A DNA stretch of 56,115 nucleotides, counting the filler, from Sphacelaria rigidula (lineage: Eukaryota), in NCBI GenBank assembly GCA_964200075.2. It is 4 parts of 4 records of this genome, joined end to end, with 100 filler letters (N's around TTAATTAATTAA, not from the genome) between each part and the next. Parts side by side here need not be neighbours in the genome. Positions count along the whole stretch, not along the records: positions 14,055 to 28,008 come from CAXNAA020002557.1; 3 more parts are not named here. One strand, written 5' to 3'. This document shows, one piece after another, positions 1-55,835 of the stretch. Both the position numbers and the translations under genes were made by a program. The first letter of the stretch is position 1. Every line of letters starts with the position of its first letter. The notes beneath the pieces were generated by a model, which saw only the letters and a program-made list of their open reading frames with translations, ran no database searches and was not told the origin of the DNA.

Positions 1-178
1 ACAAGCTCTTTCGACCAACCGTTGCTGCTTTACACGACGCTCTTTTTCTCATTTTCGAGCAACGCATGCCCCAAAATACCCCCCCCCTTTCGTAGGATGA
101 CTCATTGGCCAACTAGTCCGCCACATCGAACAAACCACCACCTCTTACGAACTGTTCATTGTCGGGCTCTTCGACGCA

Positions 179-2038
179 TTGCGCGCCACCTCCCACTCCG
201 CCACAGCCCAAGTTGATGACGTCTGGATCTCGGTGACTCCTCGTCGCCGACGCCACAGACATCATGTTGCCGACCATGAGCGGAATCTCAGCAGTGATTC
301 TCGCAACCACCACGGAGGTTCAAGCTCCTCCTCCAGGAGGACCCGACCACACCGTGTGCCCCGTCCTACCACCGGTTTGAACAAGACACACCAGAGCGGC
401 GGCTCGCCGAGCTCTTTCTCCACCAAGCCCAGGATTCGGTCTGCCACGAACTCGCCCGCGTCGGCTTCTGCCGACCTAAGTCGCGCTGCAACGCGTCTAG
501 CAGATGTTTCACGTCAGGGTTTAGGCCTTTCGGACGACATCTCGGATAAACCGTTATCTTCCACTTCGGCTCGCACTCTCGCTGCCGCTGCCGCCGACCG
601 AGAGCAAACCGCAGCTAGTGCAGCAGCAGCCGCCGCTCGAGCGGAACCCACCCGCGCCACCGCCATCCAGAGAGAATACATCCAAATGGACGTGGAAACA
701 CTTTGGCTTGTGAAACCCATGCTTCCAGAAGACAACGAAGACTCAGGGCGATTCACTTCTGCTCTCATCAAATCTATACGTCGTACTCTTCGTAACATCT
801 TTCAGCTAGCAGACTCTACGCGTACCCAACGCTTCGAAAATTCCAACTGGGTTGATGGATGGCAGATTCCTCTTCACAAAGTTCTGCACCGCGCCATCAA
901 CCGTCGCTCACTCGACACTGCCGCTGCTCTGACACAAGTCTTTGATAATTGCATGGCCGCTATGGATGCGGGCCGCGCGTCGGGGAAGTCAGGGCCGGCT
1001 TTACTCCGCGATCTGGAGCGCCGCTTGACCGGCTACTTCGATCGCAGCACCCAAGGGAGTGCTATACAACGACTTAGTTCTTTCGGTGTCGCAAACGATG
1101 TCACCTTCGCGGACTACCTCCGAGAATTAAAGGTTATCGTTTCTAGCACCATGGGGGTAGGCCGCCAGACTGGCCCAGCGGACGCAATGTGTCAATCATA
1201 TGTGGGGAATAGTGTGTCCGAGTAGTTCCTGACACGAATGCCGTCGCTGTTTCCCGGTGCTTTAGCACACCGCGGAGTGCCTTATCCCTCTGTGGATGCG
1301 ATGTGGAGTGCGTTTGTTCATTAGAAAAATAACTTGACGCCAGCCATTCGCGACGACAAGTATGCTTCAGCTCGTTCACAGGCTGCTTCTGTGCCTTCCT
1401 CGACCCCTTCAGGGTCCCGGAACCGGCCTCACACCTCGCCTCGTTCGTAATGGGTGCCCGCCTCAGTCGCCGGCTCGGTCATGAACGTTGCAAACAAGAG
1501 AGATCCGTTTCGCGCCAGTTTTGACGGATGGTCATACTCCGCCGAGGCTTGGGATGATGTTTACACTGTATCTACCCATGTGTTTACTATAGATGATCCA
1601 CACTTGTGGAACCCCCTCCTCTCGTCTGCTGCCACGCATGAGGCCTTCAGCCGCCACACGAACAGTTGTATGAATTGTAACACCCAAGGACACAGTATGC
1701 GTGATTATACTCGCCCATGTATCAACTCTTTCGACCTCATGAATCCGGAGCTGCATGATCATGAGCCAGCATGGCGCCGATGGCAGAAACGCATGCGTGG
1801 ATACCGCACACCCCACCGTAATTCTCACCATCCTTCCAACAACTGCGACAACACTCGCTCAAATCGGGACCGTCGCCCCAACAACTACGATAACTCTGGT
1901 TCCCGGCGAAGAGAGAGTTCTTCTCACCGTCACCAGAATTCCGCTGATACACCCCAGCGTATGGGGCCCAATCACGATCACTCGAATCCCAAGGCCAGAA
2001 ACCCTGGTTCCTTTATGACTGATCGTACAGATCCATGA
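179..2038 (+). pseudogene. gag: Gypsy gag, broken by stops, with degenerate CCHC knuckle
   Basis: ORFs 179-1225 and 1454-2038 share a frame; CMNCNTQGHSMRDY (~1667-1708) is Cx2Cx4Hx4C with the last Cys lost; lies upstream of pol. Confidence 0.7.
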
Positions 2039-3086
2039 CATGCCGACGCCGGCATTTTTTACGTCTTCGGCGCTGCCGACAGCACTCACGAAGAACATTT
2101 TAACACCAATCGCGAAACGAGTGACAAAAATTTCTCGCTCAACTTCCCCGGCACTATGCAGGAGTGCTAAGGACGGTCGCTCATATCGACCACCGTCTTC
2201 ACCTCTTCGCACACAGCGTAACAGTTACGTTGACTCACAACTTAGCTCTACACTCGGCTCTGGACGTGGTCCTTCAGAACTGAGCGTAAGTCTGAGGTGT
2301 GGGAACACCAACCGCACGTCTCTGAGCGGAAGGCTTCCCTCAGCGACCGCACGCACAGGCAGTAGTGTACTTCACTCGACTGGTTCAAGTGTCGTTGGTC
2401 TGAATTTGACCACTTCGGGCGAAATAACACCCACTCAGCTCGAACGAGTTCATTCTTCGCGTTCATTGCACTACGCGAAGCTACCCCTGAATGGTTCTCA
2501 CACAAACCATCCTGCTTTAGATTCGGCTATGACTCCTCAGCCAAGCTTGCCAACGGGAAGTCCACAAGCTTCGCTCGAGCATGCCCCGATGCTGACCCCA
2601 TCCACCCAACAGAACGCAGTTGGGGATTCCCCAAATACTTTTGAAGTTCCCCGCCCTTTGTCACGGCGAGAGAGAAAGCTCCGTGAGCATGCCCCCACCG
2701 AAGCGCGCGCATCATCCCGTACATCTCCCTCGAGCGGAAAAATTCGACCTCACTCTCTCCAAAATGCGAGGACTTTGAGCTCGATGAGCTTATTCGGCAT
2801 CACAGAAGAATCGAAATCAGATATTTCAGATGTTTCTGCGTCTTCTACGAACGACATTGATCAGGGTGGATCCACTTTAGACGTTGATCCCTGTCTTCCC
2901 AACACGGTCATATGTGAAATTGCTAATGACCAGCCAAGCTGTGCTCACGCTGGGAATCACATACCATCCACCATACCTTCTGGTGAGAAAGTTGACCCCC
3001 CGGCGGATGACCCGCCGTCCGTTTTCGCCGTCAGCACTGCTGATCCCGATCAATTTGCCTCGGCTGAACATGCTTGTCGGTGGTAA

Positions 3087-3450
3087 AGTGTCTGTTGATC
3101 CTGTCACTTTTACTGCTCGCGTGGCGCTCCAGTGTAGGCTACACGCAACGACGCCTGCCAGATGTGTCTCTTTGTTAAATAGCAGTAGCCCACAAATATT
3201 TATTCGTGAATCAATGTGGGTACATATGAAACAAATTGGCGCTGCTTCAACAGCTCGCGAAGTCACCACCCAACCTCGAGTATGGGGCGGTTTTGATGAC
3301 TCCACCGCACCTTTGACCACACGTATATCAGTTCGTCTCAGTGTGCAATTCTTACACAGCACAACTCGTTTTGCCAGCTTTGCAGTCTGGGCATATGTTG
3401 TCCCCGACGGCACCATAGCTCACGCCTTACTCATGGGCTGACATAGTTAC
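3087..3450 (+). pseudogene. Retropepsin-like aspartic protease remnant
   Basis: VSLLNSSSPQIFI resembles LLDSGS with the catalytic D changed to N; ALLMG* resembles the C-terminal ILG motif; sits between gag and RT. Confidence 0.55.
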
Positions 3451-3681
3451 ATGCGGTTTGATCAACGCACCTGCCGCACGCTACCACCTGTATCGCCGCA
3501 GTCTGCGCCTCGTGGAGAACTCAACCTTGAACATTTCGGTACCCTTCACGGCGCCTGGGCCTACCAAAACAATGGTCAAGCTACCGGAACTGCTTAGTAC
3601 CTACGATACGATGGTAGTGCTGGTGTTACCCTCTCCGATGATCCTCAACTGCTGGAAGTTGCCCTCGTTCGCCGAAATGGC

Positions 3682-4890
3682 ATGCCGGCCCTTACGGGAC
3701 ACTACTTCGCCGAAATGCTTCCTCGGGTTGGTGCACCTGCCAGCACAGAGCACTTTGTCTTCGCAGGAAAACAACTTTTGCCCCTCACGGGTCATGCTAA
3801 CTTGGAACCTGGTGATGTTCGGGGTATCGCTGCTGCTCCTCCCAAGCACAGTCCACTTGAGACATATGCCACTGAACCCTCGACGCCCCTCTCGGCGTCT
3901 CAGATGGACGGTTCTGTCAATTGCGTCGATGAGACTCACTTCGACGTAACCTCTACGCCTTCATCACGTATCCACACCGTGCACCCTGCATCGTCAACTT
4001 CCGACCCTCCTGCTGAAGTGCTCCAACGCCCATTACCAGAATCTCGGAGAAATTTCTTGCACATGTGGAATCTACTTCCATCTCATTTACGTGACATCAA
4101 CTTTGACCTACATGGACCCGGCTGGGAACCTGCTGTAATCAAAGAATTCATCGATGTTTTATTGGAGTGCTCAAACCGATTTTCTCAATCCAAAACGGAT
4201 CTGGGGCATTGCAAAACGCTGCCCTTTGAAATCACACTTCAACCTGGCGTTTCGCCGATATCTTCCCGACCATACCGGGCGAACCCCATCCTTACCAAAA
4301 ACGTTAACGCCATTTTAGACGCGTACTTAGGTGTCGGATTAACCCAACACTCATCCTCTCTATGGCCCTCACCCCTAGTGGTAGTCCCGAAAAAGGATCG
4401 AAACATCCGCATCACCGTGAATTATCAACGGCTAAACCGCGTTACTATGGTGGGGGAACTTCCAATTCCAGATAAAGTCTTCGACTCTCTAGGCGAAGGC
4501 AAAATATTTAGTACCTTCGACCTTACTTCTGGATTTTTCCAGAATGCCATTCACCCTGACACAACCCCACTGACAGCGTTCTGCACATCTTCCGGGCTCT
4601 ACGAATGGCTTCGTATGCCACAAGGCGCCGCCACTGCACCAGGCTGTTTCCAATGCTTAATGCAGCGCGTTACAGAGAAACTCGAACACGTCATCATGTA
4701 CTTGGACGACTATATCGCCTTCGATGCCTCCCCTCTTGCGCATGTGCGCACCTTGCGCGAGTTTCTTTCTCGACTGCGGACGCACGATTTGAAACTATTA
4801 CCATAAAAAGCTCGCCTTGGCGCGGCTGAACTGGATTATCTAGTACATTCAATTTCACCGGCGGGTCTACACCCGGAAACCAACAAAGCC
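3682..4890 (+). pseudogene. pol: Gypsy reverse transcriptase
   Basis: Motifs SRPYR, WPSPLVVVPKKD..IRITVNYQRLN, FDLTSGFFQ, YEWLRMPQG, MYLDDY; stop at 4804-4806. Confidence 0.95.
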
Positions 4891-4896
4891 AGAGCA

Positions 4897-5270
4897 ATGA
4901 CTGAATTGTTGATGCCCACGAACATTCCTCAACTCCGCTCATTACTGGGTGGACTGTCTTACTACCACAAATATTTGCCTAGCCTGTCCAAACGGATTAT
5001 CTTAATTGCGGACTTGCTTGAAAAAGGCGCCGCGTTTGTCTTCACCAAAGACATGGAAGCTATTGTTCGCGATTTGTTGAAAACGCTTACCGAAAAACCG
5101 GTCCTTTGTTTCTCAGACTGGGATGCAGTACAAGGCGGCTTTCGACTCTTTCGACTACACGCAGACGCCAACATCGACGGGTTCAGGGCGGTCCTAAATC
5201 AGCCTCAATTCGATGGGTCTCTTCGATCCATCCTCTACATCTGTCGCGCCACCCTGCCAAACGAGGCCAA
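4897..5270 (+). pseudogene. RT connection plus RNase H, truncated by an internal deletion
   Basis: QLRSLLGGLSYY, FRLHADANIDGFRAVLNQ, ILYICRATLPNE, then abrupt loss of similarity; later catalytic residues are absent. Confidence 0.85.
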
Positions 5271-5499
5271 GCACCAGCTCCCCGCAACAGCGCACCACGA
5301 GCCTTGACAACACCCGGCACGCGCGATTTCACAACAAGCGCCGAGCACGCTCTCCGGCGCGCACTACGTCGACAACGCCGCCCTCCGCGGCACCGTCAGT
5401 GACCCCTTCTGATGATCCCGATGTACACATCGACGTCGACACCTCCGCCCCGTCGCCTGTTCCACCGCTTTCTGAGCCACCATGTCTGGTCGGCTCTCC

Positions 5500-7120
5500 G
5501 GCGGAAGGCCAACTGCGCGAGTTCCTCGCCAGTTACTCTCATCTTGATTGGGCTCGTGAACAACAAGCAGAACCATTATATCGCACAACCCTGCGGTACC
5601 TCCGTGCTGGCTGCCCTGCCCATATCCCGGCCAATGTTCTGGCCCCGGTTCGTACACTGCCACCACCAACCGCCTCTAAGGTGTACGAACTGGCCCATAA
5701 AGGTACTATTTTCACAACTGATGACGGTATCCAACTGCTTTTTCGTCGCCCTACGCCCCAGCCGGGTGTGACTTCCCCCGCGACCACTGGACGTCATGCA
5801 CGCCTACTCGACGATGAACCCATCCGGATATATGTCCCATTATTGATACGACCGTGGGTAATGAAAGGCTGCCACACTGACCTGCCTTGCCACCTTGGTG
5901 TCACGCGCACATCGGCGTTACTCGAACATTTGTACTGGTGGATCGGTATGGAAGTGTCCACCCGCTCCTGGATTCGGCGATGCTTCAAGTGTCAAGCTCA
6001 CAAAACCTCACGGCAGACAATACGTTGGCCAGTCATTTCGATGGCACTTCCCAACGCTCCTGGTCACGTCGTGTCTTTCGACTATTTCGATCCTTTACCG
6101 CCCACTGACCTTGGCAACACCTACATCTTACTCTCCACGGACAGTTTCAGTCGTCATGCGTCCATGTACGCAGTCACTGCTGGAGACTTCACAGCCGCAG
6201 GCACAGCTAACATCTTAGTTCACGACTATATCAAGCACCATGGTTGCCCGAAACAGCTTCTCTCCGACAATGGTCAGCAATTTTGCGATCTCTCGGACGA
6301 ACTCTATACGCTCCTGGGCATTCCCCAGATAGCCACAAGCGCTTACCACCCTAATGGCAACGGTGGTACTGAAAGAGTTGACCATACCATGGCCCAGATA
6401 TTTTCCATGGCCGTCAATGATCGTCAAAACGATTGGGATCTTCATATTTCACATGTTATGCTGTCCTATAACAACTCGGTCAACGCTGCTACCGGTCTCT
6501 CGCGGAACGAGTGATATCTCGGCCGCTACCCCCGTCTGTCCATCACCGTGTTTGAGAGACACACCTTCGATGGCCACCAAGGCTTAGATCAGGATCAGAT
6601 ATCCTACCATGACCTGGCGCGTGCACGCCAGCGCAAAGCTTTCACTCTCGTGCGTGAACAACACGCTATCAACGCCTCGCACCTTAAGAGATGTAACATT
6701 GCTCTCTACAATTTGATGCACAAACGACCTACTTGCGATTGGATCTGGGTTTACAACAGTTTGTCGACCATCCGCCAAGGCGCCGACAGAGCCGGCCACG
6801 AGACAGTCTTAAAGACTAAGTTATCCCTCAACTGGAAAGGATCATTCAAGGTTCTGACCGTAGGGCCCTCGCCATCGTCACCTGATGGCAAATCTGTTGG
6901 CGACAAATTTCTCTATCTCGATCTCCCTCGCGATCTTCAGGAATATGACGCCAAATCCCGCGTCTCTGTGCACCGTTGCGAACCTTGCACAAACCCGCAC
7001 GACACTAGCGACATGCCCAAATATCTGCCTGCCGGTCTTATGCAATACATTCTTAACAGCTGTTCGACCAAGTCAATTCCTTATCACGTTACTACTGACG
7101 ACGTGACGGAACAACCCCTT
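5500..7120 (+). pseudogene. Integrase (HHCC zinc finger + DDE core + C-terminal part)
   Basis: CH..CHLG...WIRRCFKCQ; VSFDYF; LLSDNGQQF; AYHPNGNGGTERV; KLSLNWKGSFKV (GPY/F-like); stop at 6512-6514. Confidence 0.93.
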
Positions 7121-7122
7121 CG

Positions 7123-7650
7123 CCTCGCCGTGTCCCATATCTCCGGACACCAGATCACCTGCTGTCGAGGACGTAAGATTGCTGTCATGTACAAAACTCA
7201 CTGGTAAGGCCCTCGGAGAGCATCCTGGGAAAGCGAATCTTACCTTTAGCTGCACCACCGAGCTATTGTCCTGTACTGGACACAACCTCAGCAGCAACAT
7301 ATTGCTAACAATAAGAAATATCGTAACATGCGCCGCGGCGCAGCAGCACGCGAGCTTCATCGTGACAAAGGTTCGCGCTTTGTCGCCGATGGCTATTAAT
7401 TGGTAGCCACCAAGCATTGGAAATAAAAGATCCGCGCGAAACAGGAAATCCTCATCACATGCGCCTACCTCTGGTACGAAGGCAGCGACAACCTCTGGTG
7501 GCTGGGCCAAACCCACTCCACAGACCAAACCGCGCTTGACATATACCTCGTGCGCTTCATCGATGATCCCGTACCCGTGCAGCTCAAGCTCCGCCCAAAG
7601 CTTTATACCACCACCAGCCCATCCTCACCACGAGGATCTTGGTGTCTTCA
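7123..7650 (+). pseudogene. Integrase C-terminal chromodomain followed by a Tudor-like segment
   Basis: Same frame as ORF 6548: LAVSHISGHQ...VMYKTHW*GPRRASWESESYL (chromo pattern), then AYLWYEGSDNLWWLGQ...IYLVRFIDDP. Confidence 0.7.
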
Positions 7651-10279: not shown

Positions 10280-11188
10280 TTACCACAGAAAAAAACATTT
10301 TCCAGCGAATCTTGTAGGTGTTGCAGATGAATCGAGCTGTGAGGTCGCTATCATGGCGGCATCACGGCCGCGTACTCCCTTCGACAAAACTCCGCGTGCG
10401 ACGTGATTTGAGTACATCTTCCCCATTGTTACTTTGATGTCAGAGATGCTGAAGTCTGGGTCATGCTCCGCATCATACTTGACCCTGTCGTAGTCATCTG
10501 TCAAGGCTTCCACCGCGATGTCCGTGAATCTATCATCTGAAATGGGTCGACCCATGTACACCAGCTGATCACGCAGTTCATAGAGCTTGGTCAGAAACAC
10601 GTCAGGATCTTGTTCAGGTGACATGTTGATGTTTTCTAGTTGACGCATAAGAATATGCCGCCGTTGCTTCGAAGAGTTGTTGTATTTACCCACCAGTGCC
10701 CCCCATGCAACTTTGCCATGCGGTCTTGCGTGGCCCTTCGGCTCGAAGTGAAGAAGAAAACTGCCCGCTGGGGCTGTAATTGTCAAGTATAGAATATTAA
10801 ACAACTGTTCGTTGCATGGATCTCAATTCTCAACTTTAAATCTGTTCACCAAAATTTTCTCATGTGTATCCTCCCGAGAAAAAACCACTTCGCCGCCAGC
10901 AGGGTCGTCAACCGGATCACTTGTTCCGGCTGCCTCTTCGGATGAAGACGGCGGGGTTCCTTGGGAGCGGGTGTGTGGTGAAGTTGATCTTGACCTGGGT
11001 CGTGCAGCTGAAAGTGATTGGGCACCTTGAATGTGCTCCACATCATCAAACGTCTCCGCGGGACGTTTACCTCCATTCATGATACCCAAATTACTGGATG
11101 TGTGAGGAAAACCATGCGCGCGTGCTGCGCTTCCATTCGAGGAAATTTGTTCCATCGAATTTCCTGACGCTCTAGATGAGCTATGCAA
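10280..11188 (-). pseudogene. gag: Copia gag, frameshifted
   Basis: ORFs 10823-11188 and 10280-10804 with the Copia gag pattern, ending at a zinc knuckle. Confidence 0.75.
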
Positions 11189-12291: not shown

Positions 12292-12745
12292 AACAACCAA
12301 TCATCGAAATTGAGGATGCAGCTTTTCATTAAGGATGAGAACCCGGAGGATTTCAAATCTCCTTATCCGCACCAAATCTTCGAAATATGGTTCCATTCCT
12401 TCACCTACTGGTAGCTTTTGACAAGTACTTCACGTCATGCATATTTGGATTTCGATAACCGAAATGTTGGGGTCTTAATTAGGTTTAGGTGAAGAACCAG
12501 TTTCGGGGAATTTCGGCGATCTGATCGCATCATCTAAATTTCCCAAATTGTTTCTTTATATAGGACCCCAAAATTTCGGTTATTCGAATGCAAATTTGTA
12601 GGGCGTGTAGCAGTTGTCAATAGCTACCAGTAGGTGAGGGAATGGAACCATATTCCGAAGATTTGGTGTGGATGCGCAGATTTTGATCCTCTGGGTTCTC
12701 ATCCTTACTGAAAAGCTCCATTCTCAATCTCGATGATCGGCTGTT
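12292..12745. mobile_element. Fold-back / MITE, ~450-bp imperfect palindrome
   Basis: 12292-12515 pairs with 12525-12745 (e.g. ATATGGTTCCATTCCTTCACCTACTGGTAGCT with AGCTACCAGTAGGTGAGGGAATGGAACCATAT); centre CGATCTGATCG. Confidence 0.85.
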
Positions 12746-13954: not shown

Positions 13955-14054
13955 NNNNNNNNNNNNNNNNNNNNNNNNNNNNNNNNNNNNNNNNNNNNTT
14001 AATTAATTAANNNNNNNNNNNNNNNNNNNNNNNNNNNNNNNNNNNNNNNNNNNN
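13955..14054. other. Artificial scaffold linker (N44-TTAATTAATTAA-N44)
   Basis: 100 bp with a six-frame stop spacer; identical to the two other linkers. Confidence 0.99.
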
Positions 14055-14464
14055 CGAGATTAGTCTCTCTGGATCATGCATACTTTTTCTCACCTGAAAT
14101 TGATGCCGATTCAACAAAAGACTAACCTCGCGGTCCAAGGGTTAACCTCTAGACCGCGAGGGTAGTCAACCTGGATCATGCATACTTTTCCCAAGTTAAA
14201 TTGATGCCGATTCGACAGGTGACCTACTCTCGCCGTCCAAGGGCTAACCCCCCGGACGACGGTGCGGGTAGTCCATCTGGATCACGAATACTTTTTTCAA
14301 GTGAATATTGATGCCGATTCAGCAGGTGACCTACCTACGTTCGCGATGAAAGGGTCAACGCTTGGACCGCGGTGCGGGTAGTCCATCTGGATCGTGCATA
14401 CTTTTCTCACGTAAATATTGATGCCGATTCAGCAGGTGACCTACCCTCGCGGTCAAAGGGCTAA
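14055..14464 (+). mobile_element. Chain of four family-A piggyBac-type mini-elements (first truncated by scaffold start)
   Basis: ~100-bp units CCCTTAGACCGCG...CGCGGTCAAAGGG joined at TTAA (14142), CTAA (14244), TCAA (14355), ending CTAA (14461). Confidence 0.85.
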
Positions 14465-14603
14465 GTCCCCCAATTTTGAAGAAATCGGGATAACAAAAAA
14501 ATTGAGATTGGTTGCCATGAAATATGGTTCAAGACGCGCCCTGACACAGTTTATTTGCCCCATCAAGTATCCCATGTTGTCAGCCCGTGTCTTCGCACAT
14601 TAG

Positions 14604-15611
14604 TTTTCGATCGAAAAGGTGCGGTGGAAAACAAATATCCCGACCTCATAGGTCGTGATTTCAACCATGTTCAAAATGAACTGCGACAGTTAAAATCGTG
14701 ACCTATCAGATCCGAGTTTTCGGTTTCCACCGCACATTTTCGATCGAAAAATAATGCGCTAGGACACGCCCTCATAGAGCTCGGCCACAAAACGCACAGC
14801 AGAACCAACCATTACAGCCGCAGCAGTCCATTCTTCACCCGCATACTTTCCGTTCATAAATATAACACAACAACGACCAAGCCCTGCTTGTGATGTCCGG
14901 GAAATATTGTCGAGTCTGTCCGCGCCCGGTGCCAACCATGTTGGATGCAAAACTTGTGGCTTTCGGGGGAATATATATGGGGCGATTATATATTTTCACT
15001 TCAGGACTCTTCTACTAAGCACATGTCTCAGGCCGTGTATCAGGGCGTATCTCAGCACAAAAGTTTTCGATCCAAATTGTGCGGTGGAAAACAAAAATCC
15101 CGATCTGATAGGTCGTAATTTCAACCATCTTCGATCATTTTGAAGATAGTTGAAATCACCATCTATCAGAATATTTGTTTTCCACCGCACACTTTCGTCG
15201 AAAAAGTGCGGTGGAAAACAAATACTCCGATCTAATAGATCTGTGACCACGGAAGGCGTCCGCATCAGATGCCCAGTACAAATGTACCGCGCAGATATCG
15301 GAACGGTTTTTAATGTGAAGAAGAAAATAATAGATCGTGATTTCAACCATCTTCGAAATAAACTACGATAGTTGAAATCACAATATATCAGATCGGAGTT
15401 TTCCGTTTCCATCGCACATTTTCGATAGAAAGATGATGTGCCAAAGGGCGTGTCTCAGCAAATTAGTTCTCCATCGAAAATGTGCGGTGGAAACGGAAAA
15501 CTCCGATCTGATATATTGTGATTTCAACTATCGTAGTTTATTTCGGAGATGGTTGAAATCATGACCCATCAGATTAGGATTTTTGTTTTCCACCGCACGT
15601 TTTTGATGGAA
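14604..15611. repeat. Four copies of a ~145-bp palindromic element (family D: TTTTCGATCGAAAA.GTGCGGTGGAAA...TTTCCACCGCAC.TTTTCGATCGAAAA)
   Basis: Copies at ~14604-14750, 15064-15204, 15192-15430 (interrupted at 15241-15311), 15465-15611; further copies at 19230-19386 and a fragment at ~42600-42665. Confidence 0.8.
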
Positions 15612-15625
15612 GACTTATGTGTTGA

Positions 15626-15784
15626 CCTTTAGACCGCGAGGGTAATCCATCTGGACCACGCATACATTTTTCAAGTGAAGTTGATGCCGATTCAACAGAT
15701 GACCTACTCTCGTCGTCCAAGGTTCAACCCTTAGACCGCGAGGGTAGATCATCTGCTTAATCGGCATCAATTTTCACTTCAAAA
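15626..15784. mobile_element. Family-A mini-element plus a partial inverted copy
   Basis: TTGA|CCTTTAGACCGCGAG...CCAAGGT|TCAA|CCCTTAGACCGCG... Confidence 0.8.
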
Positions 15785-16024
15785 CATCTCATTCTGATAC
15801 TATTATTACTATATGCAGACAGTTACTAACTACGTGACCGCGGTCACCAGCAGATGTAACGCACATAGTCGTACTAAAATCGCTCCTGACGCCAGTAGAC
15901 CTTACAAACTGTACGTAAACTATGGTTGGTACTCGATTTTACTAGATTTCAGACAGAACAAAGTTCTGAGAAAATTCATGGTCTGGGGCAGGTGAGCAGT
16001 GGTGAGCAGTAGACCCAGCTTGTC

Positions 16025-16169
16025 CAGAACGTGTTTTCGTCCAAAATCGGCTCAAAGGCGTCAATTTGGGCTCTGGCAACGTACACTTTGCCTGGGCAAC
16101 ACTTTGCACCCCCTTGCCCGAGGGTTCTCGGTATGCCTTGGTCGGGGTTAGGGTCAGGGTTAGCGTTAG
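16025..16169 (+). repeat. Dispersed repeat ending in TTAGGG-like units (copy 1 of 3)
   Basis: ...CACTTTGCACCCCCTTGCCCGAGGGTTCTCGGTATGCCTTGGTCGGGGTTAGGGTCAGGGTTAGCGTTAG; homologs at 23690-23828 (-) and 25113-25234 (+). Confidence 0.75.
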
Positions 16170-18823: not shown

Positions 18824-18927
18824 TTTTAGGCCGCGATGCAGGTCAGTCCATCTGGATCACGCATACTTTTCCCAGTGAAATCGATGTCGATTCAGCAGGT
18901 GACCTACCCTCGTGGCCAAAAGGTTAA
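18824..18927 (+). mobile_element. Solo degenerate family-A mini-element (another 5' fragment at 19431-19481)
   Basis: Internal GTCCATCTGGATCACGCATAC...GATTCAGCAGGTGACCTACCCTCG; right end AAAAGG|TTAA. Confidence 0.75.
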
Positions 18928-20693
18928 AACTACGAAAATCTTGACATCTGTCGCGCGCTGCATCCTGCACAAAATATACATGGTGAAAAGGCGCAGTGGG
19001 CAACAACGTGCTGTGTAAAGTGCAGGTCTATTGCAACCATTGAACATACACAGATTGTTCAGGGTGTGAACAATTCTACAGCGTGCAGCCCGCGGCCTGC
19101 TTTCAACGTGTCCTCTCTGTCTCTAGAGAGAGAGAGAGGTGCTGTTGCACGATACTATGATGTGGTTGACACGACATAATCGTCCTTTTTCCCGACGTTC
19201 CTTTTGTTAGGCCGTGTCTTAGTGCATCAGTTTTCGATCGACGAAGTGCGGTGGAAAACAAATATCTCGATCTGAAGTCCTGGTGGGTCGTGATTTTAAC
19301 CATCTTCAAAATAAATTATGACAGATGAAATCGAAACCTAGCGGATCGGAGTTTTCTGTTTCCACCGCACATTTTCGATCGGAAAATGATGTGCTAAGGG
19401 CGTGTCTTAGGCCGTGTCTCGGGCCGTGTCTTAACCCTTCGACCGCGGTGCGGGTAGACCATCTGGACCACGCGTACGTTTCCGTTTTGGACTGCATGTT
19501 TTTTTTGTCGCGGCGAGCAGTGTGTGATGGATGGCATTTCAGTTTGTGGCATGCCACCAGGTGCTGCTTTGTTCTGTACGGCTGTGCACGAAGGGCAAAT
19601 TCGCCTTTCAACAGCGAGTACCCTTCATGTATTGTGTTGCAGAGAGCGAGATCACAAATGAACTTCGGCTGTTGTGTCTGAGGGTTCCAGCGGAGAAGCC
19701 AAGGCGCGAAAAGTGATTTTGATTTCAGACTGCGCACCATGTATGCCCAGGTCGGCAGAGCCACGGTGTTTCAAGTAACTACCTGTACATACTATACTGA
19801 AAATAGGGGGAAATTGACGTTGAAGATGTTGATCTGGACAGAGAACCAGACCGTGCCCAAGCGACTAACGAGATGGGATTCCTTCCACTCATGCCATGAC
19901 CCTGACCCCATGGGGCCCATGAAAAATTAACTCTCCAATCCCGCAGTCATAGCTGTGTGTAGGACATGCAGCGCGTAGCCAATCCGCACAGCATGAACCT
20001 CTTGATCGTCAACATCATCAGCATCGTTCTCAGTAGTTTTCGGATGCGCGACGCTGCTGCTCATGATCTCCAAATTTCCGTACTGTCTCGTTCTAGCACC
20101 ATGTCAAGCACGCCTTTCACTGCAGTGTACATTGGCGTGTAGCGGCCACAACAGCTGCTGTTCGTGCTCTTATTTGGTTATCTTCGCAATGACGGTAGAC
20201 GTGGGGTGGCAGCTCGCGGGCGTGTGCTCCCCGACTGGTACAGACAGAAGCAGGACACTAGCTAGTGCAAAAAGATTGTCCATCTACTGATGTGGAGCGA
20301 GCTTTTCGGATGAACAAAATCACCTCAACACCCACCACTCCCAGGCTTGAATAAATGTACAAGAAATATAGGTAATTTCTGATGAGCCAAATTGTCCTTT
20401 GTAGGTGACGCGTGTATTTTCCATTGATATGATTCGTTGGATTACGGACAACTTCTGACGCATGTAGCGTTCAGCTTGCGCTTTCCATGAATGTAGTACA
20501 CAAAATCAGCCCCCATTCCTACCCATAACAGTCGCGCAGGAAATGACTGTCATGTAAACAGAACTGTTTCACAAATCTGTGATACTTATGTCTGTCTGCA
20601 CCATAAAATGGTCCGCCCGATTTTGAGTTCGCGAATTTGAGCCCCCCCTATTGAAAAAATCGAGATTCGTTGCCATGAACGTTTGTCTAAGAC

Positions 20694-21880: not shown

Positions 21881-22312
21881 TATTCCAGATTTTTCATTGT
21901 CCGTTATAAGGAGCGGCCTAAGCACTTGTGCTGGACTCAGGAGGAAAATAATGATTAGGAATCGGAAAGTGCAAGGGGGTCGGCAGGTGAGCATCTGCAA
22001 GAATGCACTGCACCTCAGAAAAATAAAAAAACTGCCTTCACAACCACCATGGCTACATCAGCCCCCCAAGCAAGCTGCCTCCTCACTTGAACCGGCAAAC
22101 AACATGAATCTCTACTGGGACACCCCATGTGTAACGACAATCTGCACAAAACTCGTACAGTAGTAGACAGTTCTTTAGTGAAACGTGGAGTGTTATTGAG
22201 ATTGAGCATGGGTTAGTTTGGTGGCCTGATCACTCGCGAGAGTCACGAGCGCACGAAAGAACTGCGACTACCGTGTGCATCTTGAAGAAAATCAGAGTGT
22301 GCGTAGCCTTAA

Positions 22313-22478
22313 CCCTTTTGGGGCCCTACTCTCAGAAACATGCTGTTTGCACGGAAGGGCCTTTCAGTGAAATTGCACCATTTTTACTTGAAAGCGACTG
22401 ACGATGATACCGAGTAACGACCCCCCCGCCCTCCCTGCATGCAAACACCATGTTCCTGGGAGTCCGGTCCCAAAATGG
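22313..22478 (-). mobile_element. Solo family-B piggyBac-type MITE with TTAA target duplication
   Basis: TTAA|CCCTTTTGGGGCCCTACTCTCAGAAACATG...CATGTTCCTGGGAGTCCGGTCCCAAAATGG|TTAA; inverted homolog at 25433-25598. Confidence 0.85.
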
Positions 22479-23049
22479 TTAAGCTACCGATAGCTGCATA
22501 CAGCACGGAAGCAAGCGCATCGGTGGATCCGTGGATTTTACTACAGCCTACTATTATAACAAACAGCAAAGGGGGGGTACAGTCGAAAGGGGGCGGGGCA
22601 GAACAGCCAGCGCGGAGGTTCAGAAACAGCTCGGAAAACCCGGCAGTCAGTAGCAGGGGAAGATGACGCCCAACGTGCGTAAAATACACCATGTCGATTG
22701 AGAGGCTGTTCTGTGGCTACAGTAGTAGTACAGTGCTACATCAATTTTGTAGTCGTCGGAGGTGAGTAATATGAACTTTTATCCCTGCAGTCCTGGAGAG
22801 CTTCGTCATATAATGAAAATCGGGTGAAATATGAGTGACGGATGCAATGTGCTGAGATCATTTTTTTCTTGAGAAGCGCTCAAGGGAAAAAATGTTGTAT
22901 TGGATGCCTGTGCGCAAAATAAGAATTTCAACATCAAGCATTTGGCGTTTTGCACCTCCTCAAACAATGAGAACTTGGATTTAAGCATTTCTGCTGAAAT
23001 CGGAGAAAAGATAAGACGCCGAGCCTCGCTCCAAATAAGAGTTTCTTGT

Positions 23050-23581
23050 CCCTTAGACCGCGGTGCGGGTAGTCCATGTAATCACGCACACGTTTTCTAA
23101 CCCTTTGACGGCGAGAGTAGGCCATCTGTTGAATTGGCATCAATATTACTTGAAAGAAGTATGCATGGTCCAGATGTACTGCTTACGCGGTCTAAGGGTT
23201 AAGTGAAAATTGATGCCGATTCAGCAGGTGACCTACCCTCGCGGTCAAGGGGGTTACTCTTTTGGAACCCACTGACGATTTTGTTTTTCGTGAATCGGCA
23301 TCATTTTGACTTGAAAATGACTGAAAACGATGCCGATTCACAAAAACAAGAATCGTTAATGGGTTTCAAAAGGGTTAACCTTACACGTGGAGAGTAGGTC
23401 CTTTCTTGAATCGGCATTAATTTCACTCGGAAAAAGTATGATCCAGATGGCCTAACCTCGCGGTCTAGGGGTTAACCCCTTGACCGTAAGGGTAGGCCAC
23501 CGGCTGAATCGGCATCAGCATTCACTTGAAAAAGGTATGCGTGATCCAGATGGACTACCCCCACCACGATCTAACAGTTCA
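23050..23581. mobile_element. Chain of five piggyBac-type mini-elements (A split by a nested A, then C, A, A)
   Basis: Junctions CTAA 23097, TTAA 23199, TTA 23253, TTAA 23375, TTAA 23472. Confidence 0.85.
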
Positions 23582-24560
23582 CATCTGTCGCGCTCTGTGT
23601 GGCATTATTTCGTGTGGCATTTGAGGAGGTTAGTTCATCACTCGGGAGACTAAGAAATCTCTCGGAAATTTATCATTCCGAACAAACTATAACCCTAACG
23701 CTAACCGTGACCCTAACCCCAACGAAGGCGCACCGAAAACCCTCGGACAAGGGGGTGCGAAATGTTCTCTAGTCAACGTGTACGTTGCGGCACCCCAGGC
23801 GCTGATTTCGATAACAACACGTTCTGCGCACGCCAGGAGCATGCTCGGAGCACAGCCCAAATAAAGATCCGGATTTCGCTGTCCAGATTAATATCAAGTC
23901 CAACTAAAAATCAACCATAGCACCATCCCAACGGTAAACTATACTTTTTGAGAGCGAATGAGAAAATATGTGACCATGATTTTCCCCTCCCATATATTTC
24001 TATCCACAATGGTTATCATATGCTACTACGTATTGTATGCTAGAAAACAATACAGATGTGATTACAGTACCATATCGGGCGTGAAAAATAGATCCGGATC
24101 TTCCTTCCTACAGGCCTATAGACGGTTCTTCACTTCACGACCCCCAGTTCCCTTATTTGCAGGTGGCATTTCTTTTCGTGGTTCAACAGTGTGGTACGCC
24201 GTGCTCTGACGCGTTTCTGCGCTTACCGGTGCCGCAGGCGTCGATTAGAGAGGGGGGAAAAAAAAGTGCACTCCCGTTGCCCAAGAGCCAACGGCCTGCC
24301 GCCGTCGGAGCTAGGTTTAGGGTTTGCGTCATGGTGCAGTTGGATCAGCTCATCATCACACGCATACTATTTAAATCTGGATTTTTACGCTCGAGACGGC
24401 GAACAGGTCTCAAAAGAGAACACAAAATTCTAACCCCGTACAGTAGTATACTACATTTTTACCCCCGAAAGCCCCGAAAAGTGGCAAGGGTCGGACAATT
24501 AATGATTCGTCTGGAAATTACTTGGTCTTAGTATTATGAGTCGACTCGTGACGAATCAAT

Positions 24561-24570
24561 NNNNNNNNNN
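24561..24570. other. Intra-scaffold gap (N10)
   Basis: Ten N bases with no linker motif. Confidence 0.95.
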
Positions 24571-25432
24571 GTACACGCAGGCCAGACACGTGGAATGGCG
24601 CAAAAGTTGCGTGGATATCCCTCGGACCAGCGATCGACTTTTTTCTCCCTTTTGGGCAATCAGGCCGAAGAAATTGTGATTTTGGTGATTTTGAGTCGCG
24701 ATGATTTGTCCTAACCGTGAAAAGTTGTGTGTACCATGTACAACACGGTTTGCCCCGAGCGCGGACAGACCCCTACAACTACTTTTGCATTGTTCTGCTG
24801 ATGATGGGTGACTGCGAGGAGCAGCAAAAAGAACGAGCGGAATAATAATTGTAGCGCATGGCATTCCATCTGGAGAGACCGCTATCAGGATCAGGTTATC
24901 ATATACAACACAAGAAGAGAAAGTTATACCTTTATTTGAAGGTAAGGATGGGAGCGCAGCGGGATCTTCTGTGGTTCACGTGCCGGCACGAAGATCCGTC
25001 CAGTAGAGTTTACGACTTGGTAGGGGTTTGTTGGTCGGACTTGGTTTTAGAGATAGGGATCGAAATCTGGATCTTTACGGGGGGCTGTGGTCCAAGCGTG
25101 CTCCTCGCGTCCGCAGAACGCTTTTTTGTTTCGGAGCTCTGGTAACGCACGCTTTGCCTATAGGGAACACTTTGCACCCCTTCCTTGACTAAGGGTTCTC
25201 GGTATGGCTTCGTTAGGGTGGGGGTTAGGGTTGGAGTCTCGAAATAAAAAAATATCCGACAAACTTTTCACCCATTCTAATGGTACGCTGACCTCAAGGA
25301 TCGGAGCGTAGCGGGACCTTCTGATAAGTTGAAGTTTAGGGAATGGACGTTCGTCAGCATGCTCATCACAGGATAAGGCTGTGGCTTATCAAATGTATCT
25401 CAAACTCGTTTTTTTTTTCCTCGGTATATCAA

Positions 25433-26845
25433 CCCTTTTGGGACCGGACTCCCAGAAACATGGTATTTGCACCAGGGATGAGGGGGGGGGGGGTCACTCG
25501 GTATCATCGTCAGTCGTTTTCAAGAAAAAATTATGCCGATTCACCGAAAGGCCCTTGCGTGTAAACATCATGTTTTTGGGAGTACGGTCAAGAAAGGGTA
25601 GTCTATCTGGACCACTCATACTTTTTTCGAGTGAAGTTGATGCCGATTCAACATATGACCCATTCTCGTCGTTTAAGGGTTAACCCTTAGACCGCGAGGG
25701 TAGTTCATCTGGATCTCGCATACCTTTTTCAAGTGAAGTTGATGCCGATTCAACAGATGACCTACTCTCGTCGTCCAAGGTTCAACCCTTGGGCAGCGAG
25801 AGTAGGTCATCAATTGAATCGGCATCAATTTCACTTGAAAAATTATGCATAGTCCAGATGACCTGCGTTCGCGGTCTAAGGGTTGACCCCTAGACCGCGG
25901 TGCGGGTAGTCCATCCGTATGATGCATACTTTTTCAAGCGACCATTGATGCCGATTCAGCAGGTGACCTACCCTCGCGGTCAAAGAGTTAACCCTTACCC
26001 CTGAGACCGCGATGCGGGTAGTCCATCTAGATCACGCACACTTTTTTCAAGTGGATATTGATGCCGATTCAGCAGGTGACCTACCCTCGCGGTCAAAGGG
26101 TTAACCCTTAGACCGCGCTGCGGGTAGTCCATCTGGATCACGCATACTTTTTTCAACTGAAAATTGATGCCGATTTACCAGGTGACCTACCCTCGCGGTC
26201 TAAGGGTTAACCCTTAGACCGCGAGCTTAGTCTTCTGTTGAATCGGCATCAATTTCAAGTGAAAAAAAGTATGCATGGTCCAGAAAGACTATCTCGCGGT
26301 CTAAGGGTTAACCTATTTGGAACCCACTGACGGCATTTACCTTCTGAATCGGCATAATTTCGACTTGAAGAAGATGACTGAAAATGATTCCGATTCACAA
26401 GAACAAAAACTGTAAATGGGTTCCAAAAGAGTTAACCCTTAGACCACGAGGATAGTCTATCTGGATCAGGCATACTTTTTTCGAGTGAAATTGATGCCGG
26501 TCCCACACATGGCCTACTCTTGCTGTCTAAGGCTTAATACTTGAACAGCGAGAGGAGGTCATCTGTTCAATCGGCATCAACTTCCCTTGAGAAAAGTATG
26601 AATTATCCAGATGGACTACCTTCGCCGTCCAAGGGTTAATCCTTTGACCGCGAGGGTAGGTCACCTGCTGAATCGTCATCAAAACTCACTTGAAAAAAGT
26701 ATGCATGATCCAAATGGACTACCCGTACCGCGGTCTAAGGGTTCACTCTTAGACCGCGATGCGGGTAGTCCATCTGGATCACCAGTACTCCCAATCGTAC
26801 AGTAATTGATGTCGATTCAGCAGGTAACCCACCCTCGCGAGTTAA
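25433..26845. mobile_element. Array of 13 piggyBac-type mini-elements (families A, B, C; both orientations) joined at TTAA
   Basis: Junctions at 25680, ~25782, 25883, 25988, 26101, 26207, 26308, 26432, 26534, 26636, 26742 are mostly GGG-TTAA-CCC or 1-nt variants. Confidence 0.9.
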
Positions 26846-27765
26846 ACGGTACTCGTAAGTTACTGCTGAAACTACCGGGAGTCCCGAGTTTGAGATACGA
26901 GCTGGGCCAGCCTAAAAACGGATTTAAGCTCTCAAAGCAACATCTCATCGATACAGACGAGTTGGGCCGTGATCCGTATATCGCATGAATCGCCTAGTCA
27001 AGGGGAATATGCCCATCTGCTCAAAAATCTGGGCCAATGTTTTCTCGTCGATTAAACCCCATGTTTAGTAATTCCTATATATTTCGGAGACAGCGTCTAC
27101 ACTAAAATCCATATGAAAACCGAACGATACATTCAGCGGATGATGACGATTTTTGGTGTGAACCTTCCCTGGAGCACGGGAAGACGATATATACCCTCAC
27201 CTTTGCCTAATTCACTATCTGTCTCGAGATATGGCGCACACAATTTTGCATACTAAAATCAGTATATTAGAAGCAGAGGCACTAGATGCCCTAAATCTAG
27301 ATATCGAGTCTCAGTTTTTGAAAGTCGTTCTATGAAATTTCGTACGGTGAACCGCTAGTTCATGGTACAAAAAATAACAGCTTGTTACCTTTCTTTCGTT
27401 TTTTTTGTCCTTTATTTTTTTTCATGTTTTTAGTGGAGTTCTAAGGAGAAATGAACATTGCTCTTGGGCCTTATTTCGATGTTTTAGCTTAATTTTTAGA
27501 ATTGTGATTTGAAACTCAGCATGGAGAACCACGAAGGTCTGCCTTATACGAAAAAAATGGGCCTTTATTTATTTATTTATTTCATAGAGGTTAGGGCGTT
27601 CTCGTGAAGAAATGGTCTTCACCATACTAGGGCGCCCTAAACCAGTGAAAAAAAAATTGAAAAAACCTGACCCACTGAGCTTTGTTAATTAGGCCGGGTG
27701 TTATGGCAAACGGATTTCTGGCCGACGGATTGTTCATTTTTGGGACGTTTAACCCACCCTTTGAC

Positions 27766-28008: not shown

Positions 28009-28108
28009 NNNNNNNNNNNNNNNNNNNNNNNNNNNNNNNNNNNNNNNNNNNNTTAATTAATTAANNNNNNNNNNNNNNNNNNNNNNNNNNNNNNNNNNNN
28101 NNNNNNNN
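28009..28108. other. Artificial scaffold linker
   Basis: N44-TTAATTAATTAA-N44. Confidence 0.99.
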
Positions 28109-28358
28109 GTGTGGCGGTGGGGGAGGGGCGGGGGTGGACCAGGGAGGGGAGGGGCGGGGGGGAGGGAGAGGGAGGGGGAAACAAAGAGGAAGAAGCTAAG
28201 CAGAGTAAACTGAAATAGCATGCACGAACGCACGAACGCACGCATACACACCTACACACGACTTTTTACACCTGGCGTGCGCAAGCAACTTAGCAATGCC
28301 TGCATTGAACTTGTTGTGTACGTACGTTGTGTTCTCAATCAACAGTTTGAGAACCAAA

Positions 28359-28482
28359 CCCCCCAGGGAGCGCTGATTTTTGTTTCCGTGAATCGGCACT
28401 ATTTTCAGTCCTTCTCAAGTCAAAATCATGCCGATTCACAAAGATTCACAAAACAAAAATTAGCACTTTAGTTCCCGAAGGG
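28359..28482. mobile_element. Solo family-C-related piggyBac-type mini-element
   Basis: CCC...GTGAATCGGCA...TGCCGATTCACA...GAAGGG|TTAA; same internal inverted motif as the family-C units. Confidence 0.65.
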
Positions 28483-42062: not shown

Positions 42063-42162
42063 NNNNNNNNNNNNNNNNNNNNNNNNNNNNNNNNNNNNNN
42101 NNNNNNTTAATTAATTAANNNNNNNNNNNNNNNNNNNNNNNNNNNNNNNNNNNNNNNNNNNN
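42063..42162. other. Artificial scaffold linker
   Basis: N44-TTAATTAATTAA-N44. Confidence 0.99.
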
Positions 42163-54998: not shown

Positions 54999-55579
54999 GT
55001 TGTCTTGTTTAGGAGACCACAGTACCGGGCGGTGGGCGTTGGCTACACCGGGGCCAGCAATCGTGACTAAATCGATTAACTCTTCACAAGAACGTTATAT
55101 ATTTTATTCAGCACTTTGTACTTTTCCAAAAGTATCAAATAAAGCAATTACTAAAATAAGTTGAGATTGTCACACATCACGACACACAATTTTCTTCTCT
55201 GATCCTTCGAGGCGCTTTCATATTACAGTCAAAGGCCCGGGTCCAATGGGGGAGCAGTAAGCACCGGCGAGATTGCAAAACATGAGCAACAAAAAAGTGC
55301 AGTCGTGAACCTCGTGTCAGCCGACGAAATATCCCGAGACACACCCACACTCAGTGTTGCTCACGATTTCCACCTGCACAACACCTCTGTTTGCACCGAA
55401 CGATTCTGTGGATACCACTACAACTATCCCCCGTCAATGAGACACAAGGTCAGATTTTGTGCAGAATCCGTCGTGGGGCCTTGCAGCAGCGTGTGCCGAT
55501 GAGACAAAAGCTCAGATTTTGTTCCGAAAAAAAAAGTGTTTTTTTTTTCCCATCAGCGCAACACTGTGTGGGGGAAAAG

Positions 55580-55835
55580 TAATAGGGCGAGCACTCGAGT
55601 CGTTGTTCGTTGTGGGAAAAAATAATAGGGCGAGCACTCGAGTCATTTCTGGTTGTGAAAAAAAATGATGACTCGAGCGCACGAGTCATTGCTCGCTGTA
55701 GAAAAATTTAATGGCTCGAGCACACGAGTCATTGTTCCTTGAAAAAAAAGTAATGACTCGAGCACACGACTCATTGCTCGTTGTGTTTTGAAAAAATATT
55801 AACGAGTGCACTCGATTCGACGAGTAATGACTCGT
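55580..55835. repeat. ~44-bp periodic repeat of the semi-palindrome (ATGACT)CGAGCAC(T/A)CGAGTCAT separated by A-tracts
   Basis: About six units; one isolated copy at ~51312-51340. Confidence 0.8.

Follow-up and report, generated by a model that had tools for sequence, protein, structure and literature searches.

Miniature transposable elements with inverted repeats (MITEs) standing in arrays have been described in corals, plants and a virus, and we set these systems beside a chain of mini-elements from the brown alga Sphacelaria rigidula (assembly GCA_964200075.2). The stretch of DNA analysed, referred to here as the window, is 56,115 nucleotides long, and the chain, referred to as the main array, occupies positions 25433-26841. 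It consists of 13 abutting miniature inverted-repeat elements, namely one element of family B, 11 units of family A in two subfamilies and one element of family C, as identified by blastn with one A unit, a printout of the junctions and an alignment. What is said of other systems follows excerpts of the cited reports.

The coral CMITE elements resemble the elements found here in duplicating TTAA, in having CC[C/T]T termini, in being small and non-coding, and in occurring in arrays (PMC2872659). Coral families also share an internal region that is conserved as well as or better than the inverted repeats, and a common internal region is found here too (PMC2872659). The coral arrays are made of direct, highly similar copies, some of them with spacers, and are ascribed to slippage (PMC2872659), whereas the main array combines 6-36% divergence with mixed orientation, three families and one bare TTAA as the linker.

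The SaTar arrays of guayule and rice are, like the chains here, linear end-to-end multimers of unrelated small elements with hardly any interruption, and they share with these chains occasional deletion fusions that remove a linker together with element ends, as well as solo copies with normal duplications (PMC5907723). SaTar elements belong to the Mutator superfamily (Mu-like), with 8-11 bp duplications and microsatellite linkers, and their non-nested array architecture was reported as new in 2018; recombination or circular intermediates were proposed to explain it (PMC5907723). The chains described here share the non-nested end-to-end multimers but show no microsatellite linkers, Mu-like long repeats or 8-11 bp duplications. 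Their linkers are 4 bases only (TTAA), ordinary cut-and-paste chemistry would suffice to form them, and one nested case is present. MITE multimers in rice and maize were reportedly described by Jiang and Wessler in 2001. Of 6,600 rice MITEs, over 10% are stated to belong to multimers formed through independent insertion (cited in PMC5172404, PMC5907723 and PMC10664404). Rice and maize MITEs land preferentially in or beside other MITEs, as the present elements may do; unlike here, insertion into an element is commoner in rice than adjacent insertion (PMC5907723). The multimer families of these plants are Tourist and Stowaway, whose targets are TAA and TA.

The M1 and M2 repeats of pithovirus are palindromic, MITE-like units that form long arrays in which neighbours share one putative duplicated target, much as neighbours do here. 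They differ in residing in a viral genome and in using TA rather than TTAA, and no transposase is known for them according to the report (PMC10664404). In Paramecium, PiggyMac, a domesticated piggyBac transposase, generates short segments with 4-nt 5′ overhangs that are ligated in random order, which would give the same junction logic as in the main array, but these concatemers are extrachromosomal and transient and are joined at TA after end processing (PMC5346157). The Kolobok T2-MITEs of Xenopus are likewise small non-autonomous copies with a TTAA target, and their ends start with purines (AG, AGGRR) (PMC6004289). A Kolobok identity was rejected for the algal elements, where the target agrees but the termini are CCC rather than AG.

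Literature searches returned no description of mixed-family, mixed-orientation piggyBac-type chains joined through single TTAA sites, and none in brown algae. The paper on the transposable-element landscape of Ectocarpus reports 4 PiggyBac families with 1,588 copies; the terms ‘MITE’ and ‘TTAA’ each occur 0 times in its main text, and its supplements may contain the families treated here. The original prediction for this locus, made from the sequence before the present analysis, knew of no precedent in brown algae. That view calls for some qualification: non-nested arrays of unrelated MITEs and shared-target MITE arrays have been published for other superfamilies.

Units and junctions of the main array

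The 13 units are listed in Table 1 together with the other elements of the three families in the window. Their order and orientation agree exactly with the original reading of the locus in the blastn hits, the junction printout and the alignment. A units of the main array range from 81 to 109 bp, compared with one size each for B and C (Table 1). A blastn search of the whole window with one A unit gave 27 hits, every one of them between 14.0 and 26.9 kb.

Table 1. Positions of family A, B and C elements in the window. Handles m02-m13 denote main-array units and c1-c3 the smaller chains; A1 and A2 are the two A subfamilies; TIR, terminal inverted repeat.
Feature	Positions	Strand	Remarks
Left outer flank of main array	25429-25432		TCAA, one letter off TTAA
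Family B element	25433-25598	+	166 bp; TIR with 27/34 positions matching, start CCCTTTTGG
A unit m02 (A2)	25599-25679	+	first ~17 bases absent; fused directly to B end without TTAA
A unit m03 (A2)	25684-25781	+	nearest relative c2u1 at 15625 (94%), not a neighbour
A unit m04 (A2)	25786-25882	-	wholly inverted; flanks TCAA and TTGA
A unit m05 (A1)	25887-25987	+	
A unit m06 (A1)	25992-26100	+	5′ end with 7 extra bases, CCCTTAC
A unit m07 (A1)	26105-26206	+	with m06, sole reciprocal nearest-neighbour pair (90%)
A unit m08 (A2)	26211-26307	-	sister c1u1 at 14055 (92%; tree support 97/96)
Family C element	26312-26431	+	120 bp; ATGCCGATTCA core twice, inverted; orientation as in C copy at 23257
A unit m10 (A2)	26436-26533	+	
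A unit m11 (A2)	26538-26635	-	
A unit m12 (A1)	26640-26741	-	
A unit m13 (A1)	26746-26841	+	most decayed; ~8 3′-terminal bases absent; TTAA follows at 26842
Chain c1	14055-14460	+	four A units, all + (A2, A2, A1, A1); junctions TTAA, CTAA, TCAA
Chain c2	15625-15790		A+ unit and half A- unit, TCAA between
Chain c3	23050-23577		split A+ with nested A-, then C, A-, A- (5 elements)
Solo family B element	22309-22482	-	element proper 22313-22478, set in unique DNA between two exact TTAA
Solo A1 unit	18824-18924	+	decayed; TTAA on right side
Half A1 unit	19436-19481	+	5′ half only; preceding TTAA ends an unrelated palindromic mini-element (family D)
C-like element	28350-28482		decayed; end GGG-TTAA; left boundary approximate

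The main array has 12 internal junctions. Eight are exact TTAA, three are one-letter variants (TCAA at 25782, TTGA at 25883 and TTCA at 26742) and one is a fusion without TTAA. The claim that almost every junction would be TTAA or a one-letter variant without spacer DNA is upheld at 11 of the 12, the exceptions in the array being this fusion and one 7-base extra. At the fusion (25598/25599), the B end passes into position ~18 of an A unit over a common GGG, and this microhomology suggests that the join is a later deletion. The 7-base extra, CCCTTAC at 25992-25998, lies between a TTAA and the true start of m06 and is the sole spacer DNA in the main array. It is a stray copy of an element end and may be a small duplication or an end-joining remnant.

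The same junction type extends beyond the main array. With at most 1 mismatch allowed, the window has 13 occurrences of GGGTTAACCC where 1.3 are expected, a count reached in 0 of 100 shuffles. Over all four chains there are 21 element-element junctions, of which 20 are end to end or fused and a single one is a nested insertion. One of the 21 is the fusion; in the remaining 20 the junction tetranucleotide is an exact TTAA (12/20) or a one-letter variant (8/20).

Among the variant sites, TCAA before a CCC end recurs (14355, 15724, 25429, 25782 and 25883), at four junctions, TTGA at 25883 being counted as its reverse complement, as well as on the outer left flank of the main array. It stands symmetrically at either side of unit m04, and m03 and c2u1, which are close relatives, both end GGT-TCAA-CCC despite unrelated neighbours. 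This recurrence could reflect a tolerated alternative target or recurrent mutation. Duplication of a dimer was considered for the m03-m04 and c2u1-c2u2 pairs, each of which is A+/A- joined via GGT-TCAA-CCC, and was rejected, as the first members are 94% alike and the second members 75%.

Short-read data bear on whether this arrangement is present once in the genome. Contigs from runs X2 and X4 that match exactly extend across m04-m05, m08-C, C-m10, m10-m11 and m11-m12 (5 of the 12 junctions) at depths of 22.6 and 36.8, compared with 22-41 for unique flanks; X2 and X4 may be source data of the assembly, and the other 7 junctions have no bridging contig among those listed. A contig of run X1, from another study, covers 26472-26722 with 11 differences. 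Summed over the A units, contig depth exceeds that of unique flanks by a factor of 10^3-10^4, a rough indicator, as depth is no copy number, and in X2 31,223 contig pieces were placed on 4.5 kb. The families are highly repeated, yet the arrangement of the main array is single-copy in the genome. The original prediction would have given way if the order of units had recurred as the fixed interior of a larger, multi-copy element, but the bridging contigs stand at single-copy depth. Contig joints that were listed within the array (e.g., 25764 to 26753) were considered as alleles and rejected, since their depth is far above single copy and they have intervening letters, which points to other genomic copies. 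Two degenerate patterns drawn from conserved stretches of the A unit gave 0 matches in metagenome, viral and prokaryote contigs, where algal nuclear DNA is not expected.

Element families and superfamily

Family A is composed of ~100 bp units with the ends CCCTTAGACCGCG... and ...GGG, and 20-22 of 34 terminal positions are complementary. The unit alignment divides the family into subfamilies A1 and A2, which are split by a 4-base insertion and linked substitutions. The C elements have 20-26 of 34 terminal positions matching, and both B and C start with CCCTTTTGG or a variant of it. All three families contain a common internal module of 30-49 bp around TTTTCAAG...ATGCCGATTCA, and local alignment scores exceed the shuffle maximum for each pair of families: 33 against 26 for A-B, 30 against 21 for A-C and 45 against 22 for B-C. 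The 12-base core ATGCCGATTCA occurs 29 times against 5.5 expected, with two copies per C element in inverted orientation. The module would likely be a subterminal binding site for one common transposase. The three families first proposed are all present, and beyond that proposal A falls into two subfamilies and the internal module unites all three.

The elements fit non-autonomous piggyBac-type MITEs by their ends, their target site and their size. Duplication of a TTAA target is seen at the solo B element, which has an exact TTAA on both sides, and at a nested A unit flanked by CTAA and TTAA; these flanks support the earlier description of TTAA-duplicating mini-elements with CCC...GGG termini. 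The TIRs begin CC[C/T]T and end GGG, with 20-27 of 34 terminal positions complementary across A, B and C, and CC[C/T]T termini together with TTAA duplication are a piggyBac hallmark (PMC2872659). The units are small (81-166 bp), non-coding and high in copy number by the depth indicator above, as expected of MITEs. No Rfam family matched anywhere in the window.

Proposed serial insertion and its alternatives

How neighbouring units are related is central to how the chains were built. In the alignment, pairwise unit identity ranges from 64 to 94%, corresponding to 6-36% divergence. The nearest relative of a unit is its neighbour in 2 of 21 units, namely the reciprocal pair m06/m07, compared with 1.43 under the null (P 0.41). 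Of 14 neighbouring pairs, 8 are of one subfamily (null 6.7) and 8 are in one orientation, so that the highly similar, co-oriented neighbours of a slippage array are not seen (79% vs 77% identity; 8/14 co-oriented). The maximum-likelihood tree is star-like, and its supported pairs are only between chains: c1u1 with m08 (Table 1), c2u1 with m03 (85/92) and c3u2 with m04 (88/66). Mapped on this tree, chain labels change 10 times versus 9.5 when shuffled. The original prediction had described the neighbours as clearly diverged and had accepted close kinship of adjacent units as evidence against it; the divergence is confirmed by the nearest relatives and by the sister units in other chains, and such kinship is confined to m06/m07.

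The inverted units are informative as well. At position 6 the left end of A is distinct from the right end, and in minus units these end signatures swap together with the interior, which excludes that recombination within the inverted repeats turned the units round. Minus units could be flipped only via exchange within the last 5 bases and TTAA, or by re-insertion. By these sequence comparisons, the units of one chain derive from different source copies joined precisely at TTAA.

The array was thus assembled from such independent copies, most likely, though with evenly balanced confidence, through one insertion after another at the TTAA next to a resident end. On this account, the array would be a pile-up of old, non-coding piggyBac-type mini-elements of families A, B and C, whose mobility was presumably due to a single transposase with its gene elsewhere, with each unit coming from a different source copy. 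An incoming element would integrate into the TTAA that abuts a resident end and duplicate that TTAA, leaving element-TTAA-element-TTAA without spacer DNA. Either orientation would be possible, and a new TTAA would stand next to an end, ready for a further insertion. Arrival would be stepwise, and as the possible cause of any preference for such sites we favour either capture of the incoming complex through transposase bound to a resident end or very short-range hopping. The element consensus contains no internal TTAA, so in-chain hits would have to fall at junctions and nesting would be rare. The single nested case, at TCAA, is attributable to a near-TTAA site in the A consensus. Later decay would then have produced the variant junctions, the B-A fusion and the truncated units. 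The proportion of intact junctions, 60%, is close to 0.88^4, i.e., ~12% decay per site, by our own arithmetic from the mean pairwise identity of 77%. The fusion and the truncated units have the look of subsequent deletions, such as are described for SaTar clusters (PMC5907723). Serial insertion is the simplest account in that it would use known cut-and-paste logic only.

Chaining in the window exceeds what random use of TTAA would give. The window has 110 TTAA sites, of which 12 lie exactly between two elements, 4 touch one element, 5 are inside elements and 89 touch none. The 5 internal sites differ in their position, fall in separate units and hold no insertion. The 28 elements form 8 clusters and hence 20 joins. 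Random sequential insertion over the whole window gave a mean of 6.1 joins (standard deviation, sd, 1.9) and a maximum of 14 in 20,000 runs, and when insertion was confined to the 14.5 kb that hold all copies (14-28.5 kb) the mean was 12.4 (sd 2.0; P ~1e-4 for 20). The force of both comparisons is tempered by the null model, which is random choice among TTAA sites only, with tandem duplication and block insertion outside it.

Several further observations weigh against serial insertion at resident ends or against its piggyBac framing. Half of the clusters in the window (4/8) are single elements. At flanks that belong to no element, a small number of sites, GGG/CCC context is absent, which leaves an extended target motif unsupported. 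In X1, 140 contigs continue beyond the GGG-TTAA at 26104 into mutually unlike sequence, and consensi of loose ends after 26291 (X2, X4 and X5) have GGGTTAA, with no agreement beyond it. Many copies elsewhere in the genome are unchained. Mean identity is 79.2% for adjacent pairs and 77.2% for all pairs (permutation P 0.044), and m06 and m07 are each other's closest relatives, so some local duplication may contribute. A DDE_Tnp_1_7 transposase was found in 0 of the 163 window open reading frames of at least 90 amino acids that were scanned (165 were listed, and 2 running into N masks were omitted). With no transposase in the window, the piggyBac assignment comes entirely from the ends and the duplication. 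The ‘landing pad’ that the original prediction saw in the array is thus upheld in part, with chaining above the locally confined null, but landing beside a resident is not obligate, given the single-element clusters and the many unchained copies.

Excision by piggyBac leaves TTAA overhangs on the element and the donor, which opens a different route to the same junctions. Elements excised together could be end-joined through their self-complementary TTAA overhangs, in random order and orientation, and the block integrated once. We consider this one-step origin unlikely, though it predicts every sequence feature that is seen: one TTAA at each junction, the lack of spacer DNA, orientation at random, a mixture of families and of subfamilies, and neighbours that are not related. 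The block would have entered the chromosome with the transposase at work on its two outer ends, or by being captured at a gap left by excision, and the array would be a fossil of extrachromosomal concatenation, a proposal we hold to be similarly doubtful. We know of no description of such concatemers re-entering a chromosome, although no search was directed at this. The B-A fusion and the stray 7-base fragment at 25992 are imprecise joins of a kind typical of end joining, and PiggyMac-excised segments with 4-nt 5′ overhangs are randomly ligated by Ligase IV in Paramecium (PMC5346157). However, the imprecise joins are equally explicable by later deletions, as in SaTar clusters (PMC5907723), and the nested insertion in chain c3 shows ordinary integration of a single element into a resident in this region. 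Chains of 2, 4, 5 and 13 units within 12 kb would also require several independent block events close to one another.

Local multiplication is the next alternative. One or a few inserted elements may have been multiplied in place by replication slippage or unequal crossing-over between the flanking TTAAs, which would likewise leave a single TTAA at each junction, as a MITE-derived satellite, and diverged afterwards, which we regard as quite improbable; the minus units would then have been flipped by recombination between palindromic junctions, a step of equally low probability. Direct runs are present in c1 (four +) and in m05-m07 (three +, one subfamily), Tandem Repeats Finder reports arrays with 73-78% matches, and the m06/m07 pair (90%) and the marginally raised adjacent identity (P 0.044) point the same way. 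The tandem arrays of coral piggyBac-type CMITEs are ascribed to slippage by their authors, but their units and their spacers are highly similar, unlike the main array (PMC2872659). Against multiplication in place, families B and C and the two A subfamilies are interleaved, a neighbour is nearest in 2 of 21 units while the supported sisters lie in chains 10-12 kb apart with different neighbours, orientation is mixed, with 8 of 14 adjacent pairs co-oriented, and the inversion of the minus units extends to 5 bases or fewer from each end.

A tolerant transposon nest would need no targeting at all. In it, many copies would accumulate, their ends would supply many local TTAA sites, and insertions elsewhere would be purged. 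The region does look permissive: 14-28.5 kb also has five palindromic mini-element copies and three copies of a repeat with a telomere-like end, remains of a long terminal repeat (LTR) retrotransposon lie nearby, the families are highly repeated by the depth of the A units, which is no copy number, and TTAA density is ~1 per 118 bp in the array against 1 per 510 bp in the window. Nevertheless, 28 insertions forced into the 14.5 kb fall well short of the observed 20 joins, as given above, and 26 TTAA sites in the same region are free of any element, which makes an untargeted nest very improbable.

An assembly artefact, with dispersed copies collapsed or mis-joined, is barely credible, because even with highly repeated elements and a 10-N gap 860 bp leftward (24561-24570), independently assembled X2 and X4 contigs, possibly source data, are exact across 5 junctions at single-copy depth, the X1 contig comes from another study, and 6-36% divergence between units makes them individually mappable.

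Smaller chains, surroundings and meaning

The three smaller chains noticed earlier all exist, with 4 units (c1), 2 units (c2) and 5 elements (c3) (Table 1). The left end of c1 is cut by an N mask, and the chain may be longer. In c3, the halves of the split A+ unit lie at 23050-23096 and 23203-23252, and between them stands a complete A- unit (23101-23198) with the flanks CTAA/TTAA. The interrupted site is the TCAA of the A consensus, one letter off TTAA. The chain continues with C at 23257-23374 and A- units at 23379-23471 and 23476-23577. The solo B element at 22313-22478 provides the cleanest target-site duplication of the window.

Both half A units (breaks at 19481 and 15784-15790) stop at unit position ~45-47. 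This break point is the same TTTTCAAG site as that of the nested-insertion split at 23096/23203, and the site may be a second, internal hot spot. Reading onward from 19481 and 15790 revealed none of the missing halves.

Other repeats accompany the chains. Family D comprises five ~190-bp palindromic mini-element copies (14577-14776, 15038-15205, 15330-15445, 15445-15621 and 19204-19410), which match each other in both orientations and lie directly beside A chains, one of them abutting c2 at 15621/15625. Another copy ends in a triplicated 12-base terminal motif, whose last repeat supplies the TTAA before the half A unit at 19436. The repeat with a telomere-like end (degenerate TTAGGG/CCCTAA) has three copies, at 16070-16169 (+), 23695-23910 (-) and 25028-25232 (+), each 110-310 bp from an A chain. 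A blastn search of the chain flanks against the window for larger duplicated blocks around the chains found only the small repeat families D and T. A candidate 121-bp mini-element at 12459-12579 does not belong to A, B or C; 15 of 16 terminal positions are complementary and its flanks are ATAA and TTAT. A tandem array of a 43-base unit lies at 55575-55785 (4.9 copies, 78% matches, 86-base higher-order period).

Transposon sequence is abundant throughout the left half of the window. At 101-7207 (+) lies a Ty3/gypsy-type retrotransposon, frameshifted, that has RVT_1, RNase H, integrase zinc-binding and rve domains, and at 10280-10822 (-) a copia-type gag fragment, and Pfam hits in the window are confined to retrotransposon domains at 3.6-6.5 kb and 10.3-10.8 kb and one sub-threshold match. 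The flanks of the main array at 24410-24860 and 26826-27400 have summed contig depths of 10^4-10^6 in all four runs, versus ~20-40 for unique sequence. These flanking repeats have no second copy in the window, and many contigs begin at 26896. The loose ends of each of the four runs agree on a sequence that spans the 10-N gap at 24561-24570. The N masks at 13955-14054, 28009-28108 and 42063-42162 are identical, each with 44 N, 12 bases and 44 N, and stand 14,054 bases apart; they look like masked stretches rather than assembly gaps.

What the locus means depends on how its chains arose. If neither serial insertion nor block ligation is true, it would be an ordinary decayed transposon nest. There is a small chance that the chains are chromosomal fossils of re-integrated extrachromosomal concatemers, by analogy with the ligation of PiggyMac-excised segments in Paramecium. 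Block ligation would imply genomic recycling of excision products, and such fossils would represent a way, not described before, for cut-and-paste transposons to form composite elements and give rise to the seeds of satellite DNA. If, instead, the TTAA at a resident end is truly favoured, as under serial insertion, an attraction to resident copies of their own would be inherent in piggyBac-type transposases. This attraction would account for nests of mini-transposons and some satellite seeds, and would bear on where re-mobilised piggyBac vectors land. The arrays would then record the order of insertion, and would be a minimal counterpart, with a 4-base linker, to the microsatellite-linked arrays of plants.

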